A stretch of DNA of 64,000 nucleotides, taken from positions 273,777 to 337,776 of the forward strand of contig JAFGCJ010000002.1 in the NCBI GenBank assembly GCA_016932785.1, read 5' to 3'. This document shows, in pieces, positions 2,438 to 46,722 of this stretch; positions within the stretch are counted from its first letter, which is position 1, and every line of letters starts with the position of its first letter. The notes beneath the pieces are model-generated. The model did no database searches, was not told the DNA's origin, and was given only the letters and a program-made list of their open reading frames with translations. The DNA is from Candidatus Dojkabacteria bacterium (GTDB taxonomy: Bacteria > Patescibacteriota > Dojkabacteria > SC72 > JAFGCJ01). Both the position numbers and the translations under genes were made by a program.

Positions 2438-3199
2438 ATGTTTTCACAAGTTTTACAAAAAACTACTCAAGAAATAGCTCAGGAAATTGTTGCTGCTTAT
2501 AATTCTTCAAGTGGAATTTTCTCAAATAAGATCAACGCAGAGGATTTAACACCAGTAACAACCATTGACAACAAAATTCAATATTTATTTTGGGTAATCC
2601 AGTTGGATTACGCAACAAAATCATCGTTACTTTATAAAAATGCCCATAACCTATGGGAAGATAATAATCAATGGGTTAGCGTAGATTACTTGCAATCTAT
2701 ACCAGACAAGGAGTTAATGAATATGATTCTCACAAAACTACACCCCAGATATCCAAAAGAGATATACATTCGATTCAAAACAAATGCTGATAAGCTGAAG
2801 TCCGATTATTCTTCTAAAGCAATTAACATCGTCAAAAATTCTGACTCTGCAAATGAGTTACTTAAAAGAATCAGGGACTTTAGAGGATTCGGCCCCAAGC
2901 TCGGTAACTTACTCACACGGACCTATATAGACATTCTGGATCTAAAATATAATGACCTAGACTCAATAATGCCTCCTGTAGATATACATGATGTGAGACA
3001 AACTTACGAATGGGGCTTAATTAATGACAAGAGCATGACAAACAAAAACATCAACACCGTAAAGAAAATCTGGAATAGAGCCTGTATTGAGTCAAAAGTA
3101 AGCTGGATAAAATTTGATAAAGCACTTTGGCTTCTCGGATCAGAAGGAAAAAGGACAGGTAATTTAGCGAAAGACTTTGACGATAATTTAGGTTTGTAA
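2438..3199 (+). CDS. HhH-GPD-like DNA glycosylase superfamily protein (tentative)
   Basis: ORF 2261..3199 trimmed to Met60 (MFSQVLQK..). FRGFGPKLGNLL is a helix-hairpin-helix-type loop. It is followed by PPVDIHDVRQT, which resembles the vDtHv.Rv segment of endonuclease III/AlkA-type enzymes. Catalytic residues were not verified. Confidence 0.45.
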   Translation: MFSQVLQKTTQEIAQEIVAAYNSSSGIFSNKINAEDLTPVTTIDNKIQYLFWVIQLDYATKSSLLYKNAHNLWEDNNQWVSVDYLQSIPDKELMNMILTKLHPRYPKEIYIRFKTNADKLKSDYSSKAINIVKNSDSANELLKRIRDFRGFGPKLGNLLTRTYIDILDLKYNDLDSIMPPVDIHDVRQTYEWGLINDKSMTNKNINTVKKIWNRACIESKVSWIKFDKALWLLGSEGKRTGNLAKDFDDNLGL

Positions 3200-3262
3200 T
3201 GACTATTCTTGCCTCTAACGGCAATTTTTCACCACGATTTCAAGCACTTCTTAGTTGAAATT

Positions 3263-3898
3263 CTACATTTCTGAATCAGGAGACAGACTCGTCCATTTCA
3301 CCTTAGTTTTATCATTTTTATCAACCACGCAATTATACTTTTTGCCTACCTGGAAATAAGACAGACTATACTCTGGAAGAGGTATCTCCTTAGAGAAGGA
3401 ATACTTTTCAATCTCATCTCCTGATATCTCCAAGATGAACTTGTACAACTGATTTCCGTCCTTCTTGCGATCTGTCTTCTCAATCCCAAGAATTTCTGCA
3501 ACTCCAGATTTACCAGGTGTAAAATCTTCTGTGACATTGCCCACTACATTTTTGGGCTTCGGATCATCGGTATTATCAAAAAAAACTTTTGTTTTATCTT
3601 GCGGATCGTACTTAACGTAGAACATGTTCCCGGGCTGAAACAACGAAGTCTCCAATCTCGATATAATCGTTCTAATTGAGGCCTTAAATGGCTCTTCTCC
3701 TTCAGGATAAACCTCAAGCTCTACAACTACTAAGGGCTGATCATTTACAGTCATATATCCGGCACCACTCTCCGATAGTTTGATAACTTTTGCCACAGCA
3801 CTTTTACCTGTCTCCAAAACTCTTTTCTGTTCAGAATCTCCGAAAAATGCCTTAAAGGTAGTACCCAATGACGCAAAAAGATTGCTGAAGTAGCCCAT
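3263..3898 (-). CDS. hypothetical protein
   Basis: ORF 3263..3952 trimmed to Met19 (MGYFSNLFASLG..). Long uninterrupted frame with no motif recognised. Confidence 0.5.
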   Translation of the reverse strand: MGYFSNLFASLGTTFKAFFGDSEQKRVLETGKSAVAKVIKLSESGAGYMTVNDQPLVVVELEVYPEGEEPFKASIRTIISRLETSLFQPGNMFYVKYDPQDKTKVFFDNTDDPKPKNVVGNVTEDFTPGKSGVAEILGIEKTDRKKDGNQLYKFILEISGDEIEKYSFSKEIPLPEYSLSYFQVGKKYNCVVDKNDKTKVKWTSLSPDSEM

Positions 3899-7260: not shown

Positions 7261-7933
7261 CTTGACCTCCTTCCCCACCACTGCAAAACTTCTCTAGGGT
7301 AAGGGGTATTCCCTCACCCGAGATCTCTCCGTCGAGAGATCGCTGATGGATAGCCTCGAAGTGCTCGCAAGTAACCGTCTCCCCAGGAATCCAGCGAACC
7401 GGTTTACACATGATCAACCAGCTCCTCGCATATTCCGCTCCCAGAAGACATTGTTCGTCTTCCTTTAGATACAGACTAGCGAGTCCGTCCTTTACGACGG
7501 TTTCTTCGCTAGCCGGAAGGCCTTCAGGAGAGAACACGTACGCATACATATTCCCTGTGACTTCCTTTTTCCAAATAACTGCTCGTTTCTTAGGTCCAAC
7601 AGTGCCTATCCAGACCTTAATGAGTACGACTTCGTCGAAGTCGTACCCAAATACGGCCATGCCGCCGGAATGGTCGTAATACTCAAAACAACCGGTCCAA
7701 CGCACCTGTTGACCGGTCTGAGGATTTACAACTTTTCTCGGAAGATTCTTGGCCTCTTCCGGGAGATTTTCAAACCCACATTCTTCAAACTCACCAGTCT
7801 GCTGAATTTCCTCAACCTCGGCATTTGCCTCGCCGAGAGTCATGTATTGTTGCTTGTTCAATTGATCAGCAACAATAACCAAAACCACCAATAAAACGAC
7901 TATAAGAATAGCCAAAAGAAATTCGTTCCTCAT
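7253..7933 (-). CDS. membrane-anchored hypothetical protein (G+C-rich ORFan)
   Basis: AAGGAGG RBS 6 nt before the ATG at 7933. N-terminal TM LLAILIVVLLVVLVIV. No family motif recognised. Confidence 0.6.
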   Translation of the reverse strand: MRNEFLLAILIVVLLVVLVIVADQLNKQQYMTLGEANAEVEEIQQTGEFEECGFENLPEEAKNLPRKVVNPQTGQQVRWTGCFEYYDHSGGMAVFGYDFDEVVLIKVWIGTVGPKKRAVIWKKEVTGNMYAYVFSPEGLPASEETVVKDGLASLYLKEDEQCLLGAEYARSWLIMCKPVRWIPGETVTCEHFEAIHQRSLDGEISGEGIPLTLEKFCSGGEGGQDG

Positions 7934-33446: not shown

Positions 33447-33726
33447 CCCTACTCTTCTAGTAATAAGAGAAGTAAATGCCCGAATAAAGAAAAACTAACC
33501 CTTGGAAATGGGCAGATCATAGCCAGAATTACTGACTTAACTAACATTCAGGCAGTTTAATTAAACTGAGTTATGAGCCTAATATCAATCTATAGGAATT
33601 TCCATCCAAAGTCAACCCTGCAAAACCCCAGATATGCCTATAACAATGCGAAATATTGCGTAGGAACATAGTTCGAGTAGAAACATCATCAACTTTGAGC
33701 TATAATTACAACAATTTAATAGAAAA

Positions 33727-33938
33727 ATGCTTTGACGGAGAGGAATGGGCTCCTGAGCAGCAAGGCGAAAAGTAAGTAGCCGAGACGTAGTTCCTGCGTA
33801 AAAGGATACCCTGATGTTGATTCCACAAAGTCAGGACAAAGGCAAAATCAGCGATGATTTTGCAAAAAGGGGTGGCACCACGATAAACTCGTCCCCAAAC
33901 AAATGGATCTTTAGGATTCATCTGTTTGGGGATTTTTT
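33727..33938 (+). promoter_or_regulatory. T-box riboswitch leader (Trp specifier) with intrinsic terminator, upstream of trpS
   Basis: UUGACGGAG-AGGAAUGGG-CUCCUGAGC carries UGG at 33746-33748. Stem III is GCAAAATCA/TGATTTTGC. The T-box core AAAAAGGGGUGGCACCACG lies at 33864-33882. The antiterminator is GGGG / bulge UGGCACC / ACGA-UCGU / CCCC. The competing terminator CCCCAAACA..TGTTTGGGG plus U6 lies at 33893-33938. A TATAAT is present at 33701-33706. Confidence 0.85.
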
Positions 33939-33961: not shown

Positions 33962-35476
33962 ATGAACAACCACAAAAAAATCAAAAACAAACTAGACAAA
34001 CTTGGATTTAAGTACCAGACTATTGACCTTGCCACAGAGTCTTTGGATCTCGACGAACAGGTCCGCGCAGGGAATCTTAAATACAGCGAATGTGTTGGAA
34101 CACTTCTAATCAAAGACCAACGGGGTAATTACTATGCTTTCCTTAGAAGAGACGACAGAAAAATGGATGCCGAAAAGGTGAAAACGATTATTGGAAGCGA
34201 CTCATTTGATTTCTGTGATGACAAAGACCTTGAAAAAATAGGATTCGAATCAGGACTTCTTTCTCCAGTACTACTAAACGACGGCAAAAAACCAATCAAA
34301 GTATTTGTAGATCAAAATATCAAAAAGATGAAAGTCGTTAACTGTGGACCGGCAATTCCCGGTGCAACCCTCCGTCTCGATAAAGACGATCTCCTCAAGG
34401 CAGTTGGAGAATATGAATTTATAGATTTTACACAGCCTAACCCCCAGAGATCTGATGATCTTTTCTCCTCTGATAAGGTTGTTTACACCGCTGATACCCC
34501 AACAGGTCAGATGCATATCGGACATTACGTTGGAACACTAGAAAATCGGGTTAAGCTCCAAGATAGATTCAACTGTTTTTTCGGACTTGCCAACTATCAC
34601 TCATTTTCATATATGCAAAAAGGTGAGGGCCTCTATAAGAATCCAGATTTTATTCACGAAGTGACTCTACAGGTTGCCATGGATAATCTAGCGGTAGGAA
34701 TAAACCCCGAAAAGTGTACCTACTATATCGAATCAGATGTTCCTGAGACATGTGAACTTGCAATGCTCTTCAGCATGCTGGTATCACACAACCGCGCCCT
34801 AAGAAATCCGACCATTAAGGACGAAATTAAACTAAAAGGCATGGGAAATCAGTTCTCACTTGGATTCATCAACTATCCAATGCTCCAAGCAGCGGATATC
34901 CTTATATTTAAAGCCGAATTAATTCCTGTCGGCAAAGACCAGTTGCCCCATATTGAGCAATCGAGAGAAATAGCCCGAGACTTTAACGAGCTATATGGTG
35001 AGACATTCCCAATTCCAGAGGGTCTTGTAGGAAAGGTCGGAATGCTTCCAGGACTTGATAACAAAAAAATGAGCAAAAGTCTCGGAAATGCTATCGTATT
35101 CACTGATTCCGACGAAGAAATCAAAAAGAAAATAATGAGCATGTACACCGATCCTAACAGGATACATCCGACTGATCCTGGCAAGGTAAAAGACAACCCC
35201 GTATTTATATACCATGAAGCTTTCAATCCAGATAAGGAAGAAATTGAAGATTTGAAGGAACGCTATGAAACCGGAAAAGTCGGCGATGTGGAGGTAAAGG
35301 AGAAACTGGCAAATGCTATGATTAATTTCATCGCTCCAATTCGAGAAAGAAGAAAGAAATACGAGGATAATCCTGACCTTCTAAGAGAAATTCTATCAGA
35401 AGGCGGCAAAAAAGCTAGAAAAGAAGCAAAGAAAACCATGTCCGAAGTCAGAGAAAAGATGAAACTGGACTTCTAG
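33962..35476 (+). CDS. trpS: tryptophan--tRNA ligase with N-terminal YbaK/ProX-like (tRNA_edit-type) domain
   Basis: Residues ~1-165 follow the YbaK pattern (..CVGTLLIKD..YYAFLRRDDRKMD..GFESGLLSPVLL..VNCGPAIPGATLRL). The class Ic core has TPTGQMHIGHYVG (HIGH), PMLQAADIL, GKDQLPHIEQSREIARDFN and KKMSKS. The upstream T-box has a UGG specifier. Confidence 0.85.
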   Translation: MNNHKKIKNKLDKLGFKYQTIDLATESLDLDEQVRAGNLKYSECVGTLLIKDQRGNYYAFLRRDDRKMDAEKVKTIIGSDSFDFCDDKDLEKIGFESGLLSPVLLNDGKKPIKVFVDQNIKKMKVVNCGPAIPGATLRLDKDDLLKAVGEYEFIDFTQPNPQRSDDLFSSDKVVYTADTPTGQMHIGHYVGTLENRVKLQDRFNCFFGLANYHSFSYMQKGEGLYKNPDFIHEVTLQVAMDNLAVGINPEKCTYYIESDVPETCELAMLFSMLVSHNRALRNPTIKDEIKLKGMGNQFSLGFINYPMLQAADILIFKAELIPVGKDQLPHIEQSREIARDFNELYGETFPIPEGLVGKVGMLPGLDNKKMSKSLGNAIVFTDSDEEIKKKIMSMYTDPNRIHPTDPGKVKDNPVFIYHEAFNPDKEEIEDLKERYETGKVGDVEVKEKLANAMINFIAPIRERRKKYEDNPDLLREILSEGGKKARKEAKKTMSEVREKMKLDF

Positions 35477-35983: not shown

Positions 35984-38173
35984 TTACAGATATTTCAGAA
36001 TTTTAGCCTTGTCCATGTCAACAAACTCAACATTATCCTTATCTCTCTTTTTCATCTCAACCTTATCTTCCTTAAGAGTTTTTTCACTGATAACTATTCT
36101 TAATGGAATACCAATCAAATCAGCATCAGCAAATTTCACTCCTGGTGAAACGTCCGACCTGTCATCCCAAAGAATTTCAACCCCAGATTCTGAAAGATCG
36201 TTATATAGTTTTTCTGATTCTTTTGTGATCTTCTTACCATCGCCAATAGAAACAAGAATCACAGAGAACGGAGCAATGCTCCTGGGCCACACTATTCCGT
36301 TCTCATCGTGATGCATTTCAACAACTGAAGCCATAGCACGTCCAACGCCAATCCCATAGGCTCCCATCCACATAGGTTTTTCCTTCCCATCCTTATCAAC
36401 AAAATAAGCCTTGTGAGGATTAGTGTAATAATGATCATATTTAAAGATATGTCCAACCTCAATTGACTTCTTCTCCTTTAAATAACCGTCCTTACATTTG
36501 GGACACTTCGCACCATCGTATGCCGAGGCAATATCGTCTATCTTTGAAACTTTGAAATCACGACCATAATTAACATTGAATGAATCTGTTGTCTTTTCTT
36601 TAAGTCCTCCAATGAGGTTTTTAGACATTTTTAGTGCAATATCTCCGACATAAATCACATTATCCCTACCCTCATCATGACCCCACGAGTGAACCCACCC
36701 ACTCTTTGTACCAATACTCGTAAGGTCCTCCTCATCAGCATAGTCAAGAACATCAATATCGTCGAACAGATTGGCAATCTTTGTAGCGTTAGCCTCGAGA
36801 TCTCCTCGTACAACGGCAATTATCAATCGCCCCTTTTTGTCTTTGAAAACAACATTCTTAAGAAAATGGGACTTTGGCTTCTTATAATGCTCCACATTTT
36901 CATCCATGGTACATACCCACTCAGGCTGCTCAATAATCTCAAAAGGTTTTTCTTCTTCATCTATGTTTACAGAATCCCTCACAAATTCTGCCTTCTCGAC
37001 GTTTGCTTTATAGCCACACCGGTCACACATGACAATCTTATCTCCTCCTGCACTAAACACCTTGTCCTCTCGAACATCTACGAAGTCTTTTACTTTGAGA
37101 TCCCGTCCAATATTCACATTCTTACGAAAGACTCTCTCCTTATGGGCACCGTCATAATAGTTCTTGTTATATTTAACAGACTCATCGATAATAAGCTCAA
37201 CTTTGCTATCCAGCCCTATCGGAGAAACATAACCAATAAACGATCCCAACTCATCAATCTCAGATTTTGTTGCAGGTCGTATAGTCTTGTACTTAAGCAG
37301 TCTTCGAAGCTTAATGAAGTCAATCCTGTAATCTCCACGTATCGTAATACATATGTACTTTTTCCCATCAACAACATAGACCATGTTCTTCAAAGTTTTT
37401 TCCGGATGTTGTGCATAGAATTTTAGGATCTTCTTATACTCCTTCTGGTTCTTCGACACATCCTCAACTTCCATTCGGAGTTCTTTCTCGTCTTCATCAA
37501 AATATAAATCCAATTCCTGAACTCTTTCAGGGGTAATTACCATAAATTCATGACTATAATCTCCTCCGAGCGCACCATTGTCGGCAATCACAGCCTCTGT
37601 CTTAAGCCCAACACGATTAAAAATCTTCTCGTAGGCCTTCCAGTATGCATCGTAGGTCTTCATAAAAGACTTTTCATCCCTCTCATAATTGTAAGCATCC
37701 TTCATCAAAAACTCTCGAACCCTTATTAGTCCTCCCCGGGGCCTCAACTCATCCCTGAACTTGGGAAGAAACTGATATACATTTATAGGAAGATCTTTAT
37801 AGCTCGGCTTTTCTGACTTTATAACTTCAGTCATAAGCGCTTCAGCTGTAGCACTCATTGCAAAGGTACGGCCAAAATGATCCTTAGCCACAATCATTTG
37901 TTCCCCAAATGCCTCATCACGGTTAGTAATTCTCCAAGGCTCAATAGGCTGCATTATAGGCAGTTCCATTCTCTGAGAACCAATGGCCTCCATCTCCTCA
38001 ACGATTATCTTAATAATCTTATCCTTAACTCGATAACCAAGCGGCATGAATGCATATCTCCCAGTAGCAACCTGCCGAATGAAACCTCCCCTATAAAGGA
38101 GTCTGTGACTTTCAGCCTGTGCATCAGATGGAACGGTCTTAGATGTTTTCAAAAAGTATTCAGTAAATTTCAT
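35984..38173 (-). CDS. proS: proline--tRNA ligase, bacterial type, with duplicated INS (YbaK-like) editing module
   Basis: Class II motifs (FRDELRPRGGLIRVREFLMKDAY; GAYGIGVGRAMASVVE) and a C-terminal anticodon-binding region. At 729 aa it is longer than the usual ~570 aa. It has two INS-like units (LKNMVYV..ITIRGDYRIDFIKL..YVSPIG..NVNIGRDLKV and LKNVVFK..AVVRGDLEANATKI..NVNYGRDFKV). Confidence 0.9.
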   Translation of the reverse strand: MKFTEYFLKTSKTVPSDAQAESHRLLYRGGFIRQVATGRYAFMPLGYRVKDKIIKIIVEEMEAIGSQRMELPIMQPIEPWRITNRDEAFGEQMIVAKDHFGRTFAMSATAEALMTEVIKSEKPSYKDLPINVYQFLPKFRDELRPRGGLIRVREFLMKDAYNYERDEKSFMKTYDAYWKAYEKIFNRVGLKTEAVIADNGALGGDYSHEFMVITPERVQELDLYFDEDEKELRMEVEDVSKNQKEYKKILKFYAQHPEKTLKNMVYVVDGKKYICITIRGDYRIDFIKLRRLLKYKTIRPATKSEIDELGSFIGYVSPIGLDSKVELIIDESVKYNKNYYDGAHKERVFRKNVNIGRDLKVKDFVDVREDKVFSAGGDKIVMCDRCGYKANVEKAEFVRDSVNIDEEEKPFEIIEQPEWVCTMDENVEHYKKPKSHFLKNVVFKDKKGRLIIAVVRGDLEANATKIANLFDDIDVLDYADEEDLTSIGTKSGWVHSWGHDEGRDNVIYVGDIALKMSKNLIGGLKEKTTDSFNVNYGRDFKVSKIDDIASAYDGAKCPKCKDGYLKEKKSIEVGHIFKYDHYYTNPHKAYFVDKDGKEKPMWMGAYGIGVGRAMASVVEMHHDENGIVWPRSIAPFSVILVSIGDGKKITKESEKLYNDLSESGVEILWDDRSDVSPGVKFADADLIGIPLRIVISEKTLKEDKVEMKKRDKDNVEFVDMDKAKILKYL

Positions 38174-39281: not shown

Positions 39282-40907
39282 CTATCTCATTAGGTTCTCC
39301 AGACGTGTAATCAAATCCGCCATACTCTTAGGTTCAAAATGCCTTCTGGCGGGTTCCAAAATCTTTACTACTGCTTCAGATACAGCTGTCTTTAGATCCA
39401 ACGGATGAAGCTTGCCTTCCTCAAACAGATTAAACATTTCCTGCTCAGATTCAAAATTGATATCTCCTCCATGTTTCTTTTCTCTTTTGACCTCTAGCTT
39501 TCCTAAAATAGGAAAAACCAAGTGCTTCGCCCAATCTAAAACGGGATTAAACTCAATCTCCCTTTCAGGACAGAAAGCTCCATTTATCTTCCTTCGTATC
39601 TCATCGACACTGTCATGGATAAACACACACGTATCAGGCTTAGATTTACTCATTTTCATCTCTGACCAAAGTTCTCTAAGCCTTGCCTTATCCTTAATCG
39701 GCCAAACTGGCGGCTTACCAAGACCAAGAATTAGGTGGTGATGAATTGCAACAGGCTTTATCTTATTCTTGCTTTCGTCCAATAATGGAGAGACCTCGAG
39801 TTTTTCAGCAACTTCGCGAGCTATAACATGTGCCTTCCTCTGATCCATACCCCCATGAGCAATATTTACACCAATATTAAAAATATCATTAACCTGCATC
39901 GGCGGATATACAAGCCAGGCAAAGCATTGATTCTCTCCCTCACGCCTACCCATAATCGTGGAACTCTTTACTACACGAGCCAGAGTCAGATTCTTGGAGA
40001 CATCAATAAACGATTGCCAGTACTTATCATTATTGTGATAAAACTCAGATCCAAGGATAAAATTCACTTTCAACGGATCAGCCCCGGCACACTTCAACGA
40101 TGCAATTAATGCTTCCTTAAAATATCCCACTGCAACTTCAGTTATCGTCTCAAGATCTCCATTTAGCTTTCCATTTATCCAGGCATGCCAATCTGCAAGC
40201 AAGATATTGCACTCAACACCGGCCTTGAGTAGATCCTTGATTTTAAGAGCAGTCATAAGTCCGCTCCCAATATGGAGTTTACCGGAAATTTCAAAACCAA
40301 TATAATGGCGAAGCTTAGTTTCTCCAACTATCAGCGATTCCAGATCCTTCTCCGTAAGACACTCTTCAAGATTTCCCGTTATTAAACTTTTCTTCTTTTC
40401 TTGGCTGAGAGAAAGACTCATCTCTATTTTCTCCTTATTACTTAATTTATCGGCCAATTGGGTCACTCTAACATTATGCAATTTACTCAGTGCTTCTTCA
40501 ACACTAAGGTTTATACCCTTAGCCAAATCCCCGGCTCCCATACTCCATCTATCCATATCCGCGGCTTCTTTATCAACCAATATTGGGATGTCAAGCAGGA
40601 AAGGATTTAAACACCCTGGCCGAAACTTAAAATTTTCCGCTAATGCTTGTTCGTCCAGAATATCCCATTTCCCGATGTTTTTCCTCAGAAGCTTCTGATC
40701 AATGCGTTGATCCCCCTTAAGCAGAACAGCAAAAAAGCCCTCAGATGTTTTCACAACTAAAGTCTTTATTGCAATTTGCGGATCATAATTCTTGTCCACT
40801 GAAGAATCGACCTTTCGAGCAGATATGGCCCTATCCGTAAAAGTAATTTCTTCAAAGTTCAGTCCTATTTTCTTCAATTTTCTGGCAACAGAATCAAATG
40901 TATGCAT
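39282..40907 (-). CDS. tyrS: tyrosine--tRNA ligase, archaeal/eukaryotic type, with N-terminal YbaK/ProX-like domain
   Basis: The core closely parallels M. jannaschii TyrRS from memory: HYIGFEISGKLHIGSG, LLADWHAWIN, YPPMQVNDIFNIGVNIAHGGMDQRKAHVIARE, KMSKSKPDTCVFIHDS and HGGDINFESEQEMFNLFEEGKLHPLDLKTAVSEAVVKILEPARR. The N-terminal ~160 aa follow the YbaK pattern (..IAIKTLVVK..FFAVLLKGDQRID..FRPGCLNPFLL..SMGAGDLAKGINLS). Confidence 0.88.
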   Translation of the reverse strand: MHTFDSVARKLKKIGLNFEEITFTDRAISARKVDSSVDKNYDPQIAIKTLVVKTSEGFFAVLLKGDQRIDQKLLRKNIGKWDILDEQALAENFKFRPGCLNPFLLDIPILVDKEAADMDRWSMGAGDLAKGINLSVEEALSKLHNVRVTQLADKLSNKEKIEMSLSLSQEKKKSLITGNLEECLTEKDLESLIVGETKLRHYIGFEISGKLHIGSGLMTALKIKDLLKAGVECNILLADWHAWINGKLNGDLETITEVAVGYFKEALIASLKCAGADPLKVNFILGSEFYHNNDKYWQSFIDVSKNLTLARVVKSSTIMGRREGENQCFAWLVYPPMQVNDIFNIGVNIAHGGMDQRKAHVIAREVAEKLEVSPLLDESKNKIKPVAIHHHLILGLGKPPVWPIKDKARLRELWSEMKMSKSKPDTCVFIHDSVDEIRRKINGAFCPEREIEFNPVLDWAKHLVFPILGKLEVKREKKHGGDINFESEQEMFNLFEEGKLHPLDLKTAVSEAVVKILEPARRHFEPKSMADLITRLENLMR

Positions 40908-40931
40908 GTATATAGAATAACAAAATAAACA

Positions 40932-41014
40932 TCCAGGGGGCAGGATTCGAACCTGCGAAGCCTTTCAGCGTTGGATTTACAGTCCAATGCATTTGACCAC
41001 TCTGCCACCCCTGG
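40932..41014 (-). tRNA. tRNA-Tyr (anticodon GUA), class II with long variable arm, no encoded CCA
   Basis: Minus strand: CCAGGGG-UG-GCA(GAGUGGUCAAA)UGC-A-UUGGA(CUGUAAA)UCCAA-CGCUGAAAGGCUUC-GCAGG(UUCGAAU)CCUGC-CCCCUGG-A. It has a 7-bp acceptor stem, the T-loop consensus and discriminator A. It ends 24 nt upstream of the tyrS ATG. Confidence 0.92.
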
Positions 41015-41018
41015 TATG

Positions 41019-41045
41019 ATGCCTGGCTTCGGCGATGCCTGACAT
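41019..41045. repeat. REP-derived remnant (two direct copies of the REP right arm) abutting the tRNA-Tyr 5' end
   Basis: ATGCCTGgcttcggcgATGCCTGACAT. The second copy matches the right arm of the REP at 46138-46150 except for one base. Confidence 0.55.
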
Positions 41046-41376
41046 ATATAATCGAGACATAGCTCACAACCACTGGCCTTTACTTCATGAAGATGGAGGA
41101 AAAGGGTAAAACCCAAATGGCTGTGAGCTTTTTTATTGGAAGTAGACCTGGATCAAACGAGTGCCAAAGGCTAGCCTCTTTCCAGGTCTTTGGAGATCAC
41201 AATATTTGTTTAGCACAAGAGTGCTAACTAGTTGTAATCACCGCGATACACTACTATCACCTCCTCTATAAAGAACAGCGGTTATTTTAGGCCTTAATTC
41301 CAGATAATACTCCTGGTCGGCCACCGCTCAATAAATCCGTACAAAATTAACTTTTCATTAAGCGAAAGCCCACCGG

Positions 41377-41400
41377 TGCCAGGCATAGCCTATGCCAGCA
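41377..41400. repeat. REP-like palindrome (degenerate copy, opposite orientation)
   Basis: TGCCAGGCATAG-C-CTATGCCAGCA has the same core as the REPs flanking the RAYT gene. It carries one A.A mismatch at the variable arm position. Confidence 0.65.
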
Positions 41401-41475
41401 TATTCAATTCTGCGTCCATTCGGCATAACACAAATCTGCTCTTTAAGTATTTTTTGCTTTTAGCAGCGGTTTTGC

Positions 41476-41838
41476 CAAATAAAAACGCCTTTACACAAAC
41501 CCGATCAGCTCGATCAGATTTATGCAAAGGCGTTCAGTAAACGCGGTACCACTTTGCTTTAGTCTATTGTCTTTTAACAATAAAAAAACACCACGGCGGG
41601 TGTTCGAAGTCAAGACAATAAACTCTTGTCCGGAGTGCTCTGACTTCTTTGCCGACACACTCTTTTCGCTGTCACGGGCGAAACCCGTCAATCTTTTAAC
41701 TGTAATAGTACAGTTTTTTGAGATGAAGCTCAGGAGGGTAATTCTGAAGTTTACTTGCGAAAGCCTTGCTCCAACCGGCTTTTCTCATTTGCCACAGAAA
41801 ACTTCTTACTATTTCTCCGTCAACGCTTTTAAATGAAC
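41476..41838 (-). promoter_or_regulatory. T-box riboswitch leader (Tyr specifier, full-length Stem I) with intrinsic terminator
   Basis: Read on the minus strand: GCGUUGACGGAG-AAAUAGUA-[GAAGUUU..distal..AAACUUC]-AGAAU-UAC-C-CUCCUGAGC (UAC = 41740-41738). The T-box core is AAAGCAAAGUGGUACCGCG (41560-41541). The antiterminator is GCAAAG / bulge UGGUACC / GCGUU-UACUG-AACGC / CUUUGC (41557-41524). The terminator is AACGCCUUUGCA..UGUAAAGGCGUU plus UUUUUAUUU (41534-41476). Confidence 0.85.
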
Positions 41839-41845
41839 TAATTAC

Positions 41846-41874
41846 ATTATATCATAATTTTGTTTTTTTATCAA
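41846..41874 (-). promoter_or_regulatory. near-consensus sigma70-type promoter of the Tyr T-box leader
   Basis: Minus strand TTGATA (41874-41869), N17, TATAAT (41851-41846). Confidence 0.7.
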
Positions 41875-46077: not shown

Positions 46078-46123
46078 AATGTACAAGCAGTTTAAATTAG
46101 GGCTATTAGATTGTAGCACAGGA

Positions 46124-46150
46124 TGTCAGGCATAGGCTATGCCTGACATA
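46124..46150. repeat. REP palindrome flanking the RAYT gene (3' side)
   Basis: ATGTCAGGCATAG-G-CTATGCCTGACAT has 13-nt perfect arms around a single central nt. It overlaps the last codons and stop of the RAYT ORF. Confidence 0.8.
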
Positions 46151-46607
46151 GAGTCTTTGTAAAATGAATGTATCGTGGATTAATGTATAACCACTTGTAA
46201 AAGGAAGGGTCGTATACATACCCTTCCTTGACCGGATTTCTCTCGATATACCTGATCAGCCTACGTAAACTGCTCTTTGTGAAAACAGATTTTGCTTGAT
46301 AACGCCCCTGAAAAGTATGCCCCACAAGCCTATATTTCAAATTGAAATATTTCGAATATGATGTTAAAAGTCTCTGCATAAGAATTGATATCTCATCGCC
46401 AAAACCCTGCCTAACAACCAAATGAAAATGATTATCCATAAGACAATATCCTATTAGCTCTATACCACAATCAAAGACAGTCCTCTTCAATTTACTAATA
46501 AAGAATAACCGGTCTATTCTCGACCGAAAAATCCTTTTTTTTCTATTACCACGATTGTATACATGATATATAACACCAGATTTATAGTCCCTCTTAACTC
46601 TATTCAT
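46137..46607 (-). mobile_element. REP-associated tyrosine transposase (RAYT; IS200/IS605 Y1 transposase-like)
   Basis: 156 aa. VIYHVYNRGN, the HUH motif LMDNHFHLVV, GHTFQGRYQAK and the catalytic-Tyr region LIRYIERNPVKEG. It is flanked on both sides by cognate palindromes. Confidence 0.85.
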
Positions 46608-46660
46608 AAAACCATTCTAAGGGCAAATTCTTAAGAATCCATTAACAAATATCCTTCCGG

Positions 46661-46685
46661 TGTCTGGCATAGGCTATGCCAGACA
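46661..46685. repeat. REP palindrome flanking the RAYT gene (5' side)
   Basis: TGTCTGGCATAG-G-CTATGCCAGACA has perfect 12-nt arms. It differs from the 46124 copy by an A>T change that is compensated in the other arm. Confidence 0.8.
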
Positions 46686-46686
46686 T

Positions 46687-46722
46687 AAAAAGAGAAAGCC
46701 CCTTTCGAGGCCCTCTCTTTAC
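46687..46722 (-). terminator. rho-independent terminator of the 46748..47014 gene
   Basis: Minus strand AAAGAGAGGGCC-UCGAAA-GGGGCUUUCUCUUU followed by UUUAU. Confidence 0.6.

Follow-up and report, generated by a model that had tools for sequence, protein, structure and literature searches.

A tyrosine T-box leader ahead of its cognate tRNA-Tyr gene and an editing-domain tyrosyl-tRNA synthetase gene in a Dojkabacteria genome

Results

Within the window, by which we mean the whole 64,000-nt stretch of the Candidatus Dojkabacteria bacterium contig JAFGCJ010000002.1 that was analysed, the minus strand from 41880 to 39280 carries, in sequence, a promoter-like site, a tyrosine (Tyr) T-box leader, an intrinsic terminator, a spacer of ~460 nt, a gene for tRNA-Tyr(GUA) and tyrS, which encodes a tyrosyl-tRNA synthetase (TyrRS) (Table 1). 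A first-pass annotation of the same DNA had placed a promoter, a Tyr T-box, tRNA-Tyr and tyrS here on one strand, and we found each of these elements where it had been placed. It had also stated that no other recognisable gene lies in between. Our scans likewise recognised no gene in the ~460 nt, although the spacer is not empty and contains conserved, structured sequence. The promoter-like site has counterparts of equal strength ahead of orthologous leaders in related loci (numbered with an L throughout), for example with 12/12 matches in L089 and 10/12 in L081.

Table 1. Positions of the features discussed, numbered on the forward strand of the window
Feature	Position	Strand	Evidence or remark
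Promoter-like site TTGATA-17-TATAAT, extended -10 TG	41874..41846	-	11/12 matches, near-consensus sigma-70-type
Tyr T-box leader	41832..41523	-	Rfam RF00230, 88.9 bits, E 1e-19
Stem I	41826-41728	-	GA/kink-turn (K-turn) base, AGUA/GAA specifier loop, AG bulge, distal loop; from Rfam model alignment
AG bulge of Stem I	41789-41783	-	
Distal loop of Stem I	41776-41765	-	
Specifier codon UAC (Tyr), context GAA-U-UAC-C	41740-41738	-	Pairs with GUA anticodon of downstream tRNA
Stem II-region hairpin	41689-41672	-	
Stem III	41605-41587	-	
T-box sequence AAAGCAAAGUGGUACCGCG	41560-41542	-	
UGGU of T-box bulge	41551-41548	-	Complementary to ACCA-3' end of tRNA
Intrinsic terminator, 24-bp hairpin + UUUUUAUUU	stem 41534..41484, whole 41475..41534	-	-35.3 kcal/mol, z -9.4
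Spacer, ~460 nt, strongly structured RNA domain	41474..41015	-	Diverged counterpart at L081 3540-3978
Repetitive extragenic palindromic (REP) sequence CTGGCATAGGCTATGCCTGGCA, 22 nt, with adjacent sequence	palindrome 41377-41398, region 41347..41402	-	Resembles upstream end of transposase unit, 46631-46687
GGAGG, 8 nt, GUG, micro-ORF M-Y-R-G-D-Y-N-stop (ORF, open reading frame)	GGAGG 41264-41260, ORF 41251-41228	-	
Long hairpin just upstream of tRNA	41061..41129	-	Long hairpin at equivalent place in L081
Two direct REP half-sites ATGTCAGGCAT...GCCAGGCAT	41018..41046	-	83% identity over 29 nt to REP 46122-46150
tRNA-Tyr(GUA)	41014..40932	-	ARAGORN; Rfam 63.9 bits
tyrS, 541-codon ORF	40907..39282	-	ATG 24 nt past tRNA 3' end
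Proline (Pro) T-box	38496-38274	-	Precedes proS
Tryptophan (Trp) T-box	33723-33899	+	Ultrashort Stem I, specifier GAA-UGG-G, UGGC bulge; precedes YbaK-TrpRS fusion (TrpRS, tryptophanyl-tRNA synthetase)
REP-associated tyrosine transposase (RAYT) gene	46607-46137	-	IS200-like Y1; PF01797 (Y1_Tnp) E 6e-12

The T-boxes of the window were recovered by an Rfam scan that used E-value thresholds instead of the gathering score. Because the Tyr T-box scores just under the RF00230 gathering score of 93 bits, it is absent from a default scan, which reports the tRNA alone. Orthologous leaders score 103.8 (L082), 99.4 (L086), 95.1 (L089) and 75 bits (L081), and the sub-threshold score is an effect of insertions and not of missing motifs. 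We aligned seven leaders, that of the window and six orthologues (alignment A3), for which RNAalifold gave 61 pairs; compensatory changes occur in 28 of these, and the pairs of Stem I covary. The motif GAA-N-UAC-CC is invariant in all seven apart from N, which is U, A or G. The alternative specifier frame UUA could be ruled out, as UAC does not change among the seven leaders while the base that precedes it varies. The bulge reads UGGU in 7/7 aligned leaders and every T-box-linked tRNA (8/8) has A73, and the match that the first-pass annotation had drawn between the UGGU bulge and the discriminator A of the adjacent tRNA is thus borne out. Judged by its motifs and their covariation, the T-box is genuine and tyrosine-specific.

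The predicted antiterminator has a 7-nt bulge, UGGUACC, and its 3' arm and the 5' arm of the terminator are formed from a common strand, CGCCUUUGC (41532-41524), making the two structures mutually exclusive. Since the terminator (-35.3 kcal/mol) is much stronger than the antiterminator (-10.6 kcal/mol), the default state of the leader is expected to be 'off'. ORFs of 45 codons overlap the terminator in the window (41527..41390) and in L081 (3493-3630); we rejected these as a source of a conserved peptide, as their likeness is confined to the conserved nucleotides of the terminator.

The tRNA-Tyr of the window has C1-G72, A73 and a long variable arm. C1-G72 is present in all eight T-box-linked tRNA-Tyr, and the variable arm is long in six of the eight and short in L082 and L167. 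The window's gene does not encode CCA (…CCUGGA UGU; 40929-40932, minus strand). CCA is encoded in the seven other T-box-linked tRNA-Tyr genes and is also missing in the truncated gene of L091. The tyrS product, which is 100% identical to an NCBI protein entry from Candidatus Dojkabacteria, begins with a YbaK-like editing domain (PF04073) at residues 40-137. Joined to this is an archaeal-type TyrRS at residues 169-528, which matches Pfam PF00579 and, at 404 bits, NCBIfam NF006330. Its best solved relatives include 2cyc, 2cya, 2cyb and 1j1u, which we take to be archaeal TyrRS entries. By these features tRNA and synthetase are an archaeal-identity pair, that is, an archaeal/eukaryal-type TyrRS with a C1-G72 tRNA-Tyr. 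This agrees with Mukai et al., 2017 (PMC5370408), who described tRNA-Tyr with C1-G72, often with a variable arm, together with archaeal/eukaryal-type TyrRS in Dojkabacteria and other phyla of the candidate phyla radiation (CPR).

A protein search returned only eight YbaK-TyrRS fusion proteins, the window's own included, and more loci were obtained from a metagenome scan; all loci were scanned for T-boxes and tRNAs. The order T-box, tRNA-Tyr(GUA, A73), tyrS is shared by eight distinct lineages (the window, L081, L082, L086/87/88, L089/90, L167, L169 and L176, the last close to L086), the TyrRS proteins of which are ~47-57% identical to the window's; for the fusion proteins, identity along the alignment is ~47-55%. 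The tRNA begins 11 nt after the terminator stem in L082, 12 nt in L167, 17 nt in L089, 24 nt in L169 and 54 nt in L086, as against about 440 nt in L081 and about 470 nt in the window. In four of the five short-gap lineages the gap is too short for a separate promoter, and in L082 and L089, the two whose gaps were scanned, no promoter-like site lies between leader and tRNA. The sole strong promoter of L089 is the 12/12 site ahead of the T-box. L081 has the long spacer as well, and there too a single promoter-like site was seen over 1 kb, ahead of the T-box. Where no gene intervenes, the tRNA 3' end is followed by the tyrS start codon after 23-36 nt. The contig of L091 starts inside the tRNA-Tyr gene that precedes its fusion tyrS, and L083 alone has a fusion gene with neither T-box nor tRNA-Tyr.

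A scan of genome contigs gave mostly TyrRS loci of DPANN archaea and other Patescibacteria, none with the fusion, and these were used as T-box-negative controls. At many of the other Patescibacteria loci with an archaeal-type TyrRS, tRNA-Tyr also lies directly upstream of tyrS, often in tRNA clusters, and neither an nhmmer profile nor Rfam found a T-box there. Going by this distribution, the linked tRNA/synthetase pair is older and more widespread, and the T-box ahead of it is specific to the fusion clade. The linkage also suggests that the pair travels as a unit. In L004, L008, L011, L019, L025, L033, L095, L130 and others, tyrS stands in a tRNA cluster with tRNA-Tyr upstream and further tRNAs downstream.

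In two of the T-box-linked lineages other genes were seen between tRNA-Tyr and tyrS. L082 (2748-5611) has an aminotransferase gene there (Pfam Aminotran_1_2), which would be in keeping with a Tyr regulon provided that its product works on aromatic amino acids, and L167 (1875-4476) has a 297-codon ORF and a free-standing YbaK-like ORF. A 220-aa ORF after tyrS in the window was considered as a conserved partner gene and rejected, as it has no similarity to the ORF after tyrS in L082.

The spacer of the window folds with z scores of -7.2 and -5.6 in two runs against shuffles, and that of L081 with -6.4. With the repeat arms left out, the spacer interiors still give z about -5.4 on the sense strand, compared with about -3.4 on the antisense strand. 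Aligned globally with MAFFT, the spacers of the window and L081 gave an unreliable result, and local blastn yielded short collinear blocks only, namely AATTGAATAT(T)GCTGG, GTGGGCTTTC and a 5' hairpin. Written as RNA, the shared blocks are the 5' hairpin GCUGCYAAAAGC, AAUUGAAUAU(U)GCUGG, GUGGGCUUUC and AAUAU..GUGAUC, and they lie partly outside the repeat arms. Neither spacer matches an Rfam family up to E = 10, and ARAGORN found no tmRNA or further tRNA. Taken with the fold scores, the shared blocks indicate that the spacer is more than REPs.

Both ends of the spacer resemble the ends of the transposase unit at 46122..46687, in the same relative orientation. The upstream end is 74% identical to its counterpart over 57 nt (E 8e-7). 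The transposase gene within that unit is flanked by inverted palindromes (46122-46150 and 46659-46687), which are extended copies of GGCATAGGCTATGCC; its product scores 53 bits against NCBIfam NF047646 ('REP-associated tyrosine transposase'), below the cut-off of 80, and the REP sequences of the spacer probably derive from this family. The REP-like arms of the spacer are 332 nt apart. The downstream half-sites can pair with the upstream REP (41377-41398), and the paired arms close a domain of ~385 nt that ends 4 nt before the tRNA. The first-pass annotation had called the spacer 'REP-littered'. The kind of repeat was right, as the palindrome flanks the RAYT gene, but the wording was too strong, given that the spacer holds one palindrome and one pair of half-sites and that the full palindrome occurs only three times in 64 kb. 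In CPR genomes, REP/RAYT systems may have gone unreported so far.

The spacer also contains a micro-ORF behind a Shine-Dalgarno sequence, and L081 has a collinear feature (~3771-3811) made of GGAGG, 6 nt, AUG and M-P-Y-F-G-K-D-G-Y-stop. In each genome the ORF has two Tyr codons in its 7-9 codons, and the Tyr and Asp codons of the two versions show synonymous changes (UAU/UAC, GAU/GAC). A segment downstream is able to pair with the Shine-Dalgarno region or with the ORF in both (GGAGGU/AUCUCC in the window, GAGGCC/GGCCUC in L081). In 20,000 shuffles, a feature of this kind, with a Shine-Dalgarno sequence, a start codon and a Tyr-containing ORF, arose with a chance of 0.2-0.3% per spacer, for an ORF picked out in retrospect. 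The stretch after the micro-ORF has no canonical terminator on this strand in the window or in L081. We put the micro-ORF forward, tentatively, as a candidate Tyr-codon leader peptide.

Discussion

Given that the order of T-box, tRNA-Tyr and tyrS is kept in eight lineages, that the gaps measure 11-54 nt in five of these, and that the two gaps scanned contain no promoter-like site, it is most likely the T-box that governs whether its own ligand tRNA and the synthetase gene are transcribed. For the short-gap lineages, the simplest reading is that the tRNA is transcribed solely by readthrough of the terminator, a design that the window would have inherited. We therefore believe that the locus is probably one transcription unit, made up of the promoter, the Tyr T-box leader, a structured spacer leader, tRNA-Tyr and the YbaK-TyrRS mRNA. 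Also in its favour are the complete and covarying T-box, the 23-36 nt between tRNA and tyrS, the lone promoter-like site of L081 and the corresponding proline layout in L081 described below, as would be the aminotransferase gene of L082 if its substrates are aromatic amino acids. The first-pass annotation had raised the possibility that the riboswitch controls both its own ligand tRNA and the synthetase. The gene order and the short gaps of the relatives speak for this, and the part that stands less firmly concerns the window itself, the spacer of which holds weak promoter-like sites.

From the parts, their order and their conservation, we infer co-transcription, processing and a regulatory response of the following kind. 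By default, the very stable terminator would stop RNA polymerase after the leader. When uncharged tRNA-Tyr accumulates, its GUA anticodon would pair with the UAC specifier, its elbow would dock against distal Stem I, and UGGU would pair with its free ACCA end. These three contacts would stabilise the weak antiterminator, and polymerase would continue through the spacer to yield more tRNA-Tyr and TyrRS. RNase P would then free the 5' end of the tRNA and an endonuclease would presumably cut its 3' end. As the window's tRNA gene lacks CCA, this would have to be added, and the remaining mRNA would be translated into TyrRS. In this way the riboswitch would raise both the pool of its own ligand and the enzyme that converts the ligand to the charged, non-inducing form, and the two partners of the archaeal-identity pair would be made in step.

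Several observations weigh against control of this kind. The terminator is very strong, at -35 kcal/mol, and if this is the sole tRNA-Tyr gene the basal supply of the tRNA would hang on leakage, which argues for another source of tRNA. The Tyr T-box, at 88.9 bits, does not reach the RF00230 gathering score. Transcription could also end, through Rho or in another way, within the ~460 nt of untranslated structured RNA. Finally, the spacer holds two promoter-like sites on the correct strand, TTGAGC-16-TATTAT (41331..41304) and TTGGCA-18-AAAAAT (41478..41449), each with 9/12 matches; their bearing is considered below.

The spacer may do more than connect the T-box to the tRNA. One possibility is that two sensors act in series, with translation of the micro-ORF reporting charged tRNA-Tyr and remodelling the spacer, which would then form a checkpoint after the T-box. 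Such a checkpoint would add to the explanation of the locus as one operon and would not replace it. It would account for Shine-Dalgarno sequences and start codons with very short, Tyr-rich ORFs that are collinear in the window and in L081, that would arise rarely by chance, that differ synonymously in their Tyr and Asp codons, that can enter alternative pairings in both genomes, and that lie in spacers with a strand-specific excess of structure. On the other hand, the comparison involves just two sequences and an ORF picked out post hoc, there is no canonical terminator past the ORF on this strand, and relatives without the spacer manage without the ORF. We regard a second sensor as possible, though not as probable. 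A wider proposal, in which a two-sensor cassette of T-box and micro-ORF in a conserved ~380-nt leader gates the sole tRNA-Tyr and the editing-domain TyrRS, in which the riboswitch is obligatorily autocatalytic, and in which the design recurs for other amino acids in Dojkabacteria, is speculative and we hold it with considerable doubt.

Alternatively, the spacer could be a non-autonomous, REP-bounded mobile element that was moved by the nearby transposase, that has no role of its own and that is simply transcribed through. The resemblance of both ends to those of the transposase unit in the same relative orientation, the recurrence of the palindrome only beside the transposase gene, and the long closing helix formed by the arms are all as would be expected of such an element. 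Its interior, however, is not repeated elsewhere in the window or among the 176 loci fetched, and we accordingly rejected the idea of a multi-copy element. Nor does the spacer contain a remnant of a transposase protein; as a decayed transposase gene it was rejected, since the best blastx match to the nearby transposase had E about 1. Moreover, L081 has a spacer of much the same length in the corresponding place, with shared blocks outside the repeat arms, and this in a genome where the flanking TyrRS is only ~55-57% identical, and the structural signal of the interior is strand-specific. A spacer that is nothing but a mobile element is therefore unlikely.

A further alternative would divide the locus into two uncoupled units. 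Here an insertion of ~460 nt would have split the T-box from tRNA-Tyr and tyrS, an internal promoter in the spacer would drive these genes constitutively, and the T-box would be left in control of the spacer RNA only, or of nothing. The first-pass annotation had offered a version of this in which REP insertions uncoupled the leader. The two 9/12 sites named above could supply the promoter, the strength of the terminator makes a constitutive source of an essential tRNA attractive, and the REP-related ends hint that at least part of the spacer was inserted. Yet these candidates are far weaker than the 10-12/12 promoters ahead of every T-box in the group, and the -35 of the better one is not conserved in L081, whose spacer has no promoter-like site. 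TATTAT is common to the window and L081, but a conserved internal promoter was rejected, the two spacings to the -35 being 16 and 23 nt. Given also that the spacer predates the split from L081, that the T-box is intact with all its features conserved, and that relatives without the spacer have no room for a second promoter, we disfavour uncoupling and consider it quite improbable. That the T-box is a decaying relic that no longer switches, as its sub-threshold Rfam score might suggest, is very hard to reconcile with an E-value of 1e-19, with functional motifs that are all intact, with a specifier and a UGGU that match the adjacent tRNA, and with covarying pairs among orthologues, several of which exceed the threshold with 95-104 bits.

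The T-box leader of Bacillus subtilis tyrS, known from the work of Grundy and Henkin, is a class I transcriptional T-box of family RF00230. The leader described here shares with it the UAC specifier, a UGGN bulge matched to the discriminator, a Stem I with K-turn, S-turn specifier loop and distal platform, Stem III, a competing antiterminator and terminator, and a gene for the cognate synthetase under its predicted control. Unlike in B. subtilis, the leader is followed first by the gene for the cognate tRNA, the synthetase belongs to the archaeal type and has a YbaK-like domain, the host is a CPR bacterium, and, in the window and L081, ~440-460 nt of structured RNA lie between the terminator and the first gene.

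Mixed operons of tRNA and mRNA are represented in Escherichia coli by thrU-tyrU-glyT-thrT-tufB. As there, the tRNA of our locus would be co-transcribed with a downstream protein gene and freed by RNase P and 3' processing; the E. coli operon, however, is not known to be gated by a riboswitch whose ligand is the encoded tRNA. For the micro-ORF, the closest parallel is E. coli pheM-pheST, a synthetase operon under leader-peptide attenuation, in which, as in our locus, a short ORF rich in cognate codons lies upstream of the synthetase gene and could sense the charged tRNA. In contrast to pheM, the micro-ORF is a candidate known from sequence, has just two Tyr codons, sits between a T-box and a tRNA, and is not followed by a canonical terminator. 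The repeats, for their part, behave like those of REP/RAYT systems in that there are several intergenic copies of an imperfect palindrome, two of them, inverted, on either side of a single IS200-like Y1 transposase gene. They differ in that there are so few full copies and in that the arms in the spacer close a larger conserved structure.

T-boxes are known to control genes for synthetases, biosynthesis and transporters. Our full-text searches found no paper describing T-box control of a tRNA gene, which, with incomplete coverage of the literature, is an absence of evidence only. Within that scope, a T-box whose predicted targets include the gene for its own tRNA ligand would be a new arrangement of a known type of switch; in the window and L081 it is accompanied by a conserved, structured spacer leader. 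Mukai et al., 2017 (PMC5370408) also described a tRNA-Trp(A73)-TrpRS-A operon in CPR bacteria. The words T-box and YbaK are absent from that paper, and neither T-box control of the Tyr pair nor the fusion of TyrRS to an editing domain is described there.

If our interpretation is true, induction would raise the pool of the inducer, in the form of new and initially uncharged tRNA, and at the same time the enzyme that removes the inducing form. This would place a positive feedback loop inside a negative one, and tRNA and synthetase would be made in parallel. One may also ask how the cell obtains an essential tRNA whose gene follows a terminator of -35 kcal/mol. Furthermore, archaeal-identity pairs such as this one, found in CPR bacteria with small genomes, are of the kind used as orthogonal systems in genetic-code expansion, and for this reason the locus may represent a natural, compact and self-regulating tRNA/synthetase cassette.

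Additional observations

Three T-boxes lie within 8.2 kb of the window, for Trp, Pro and Tyr. They score 59, 56 and 89 bits, respectively, all below the RF00230 gathering threshold, and standard annotation would miss all three. The proS leader of L081 (7320-7800) is T-box-like and is followed by tRNA-Pro(UGG) (7691-7767) and then by proS. It shares 71% column identity with the proS leader of the window, with the same T-box sequence and terminator, and the window's leader has no tRNA at the corresponding position. Rfam called no T-box in the L081 proS leader, which we class as T-box-like from its orthology to the window's sub-threshold proS T-box and from an nhmmer match. Its apparent specifier, CCU or CCC, would give a wobble mismatch with the UGG anticodon. 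With this leader so classed, the layout of T-box, cognate tRNA and synthetase is not unique to tyrosine.

On the minus strand, seven U in a row come after Stem III of the Tyr leader (41586-41605), and the stem was marked as resembling a terminator, as it was in L089 and L082. On the plus strand, a hairpin followed by TTTTTTATT (41061-41137) resembles an intrinsic terminator facing the tRNA gene, and a promoter-like site with TG (40993-41020, 10/12) lies antisense within the tRNA gene. Neither of these plus-strand features was seen in L081.

Editing domains are unusual on class Ic synthetases. In the window, an N-terminal YbaK/ProRS-INS-like domain (PF04073, with a weak match to TIGR00011) is also present on a bacterial-type TrpRS (33962-35476, plus strand). 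The same domain is free-standing in L167, where it is encoded by a 153-codon ORF (2881-3342) directly before tyrS. The prolyl-tRNA synthetase of the window (35984-38173, minus strand) has 729 residues and matches the editing-domain model in two stretches, which suggests that its insertion domain is enlarged or duplicated.

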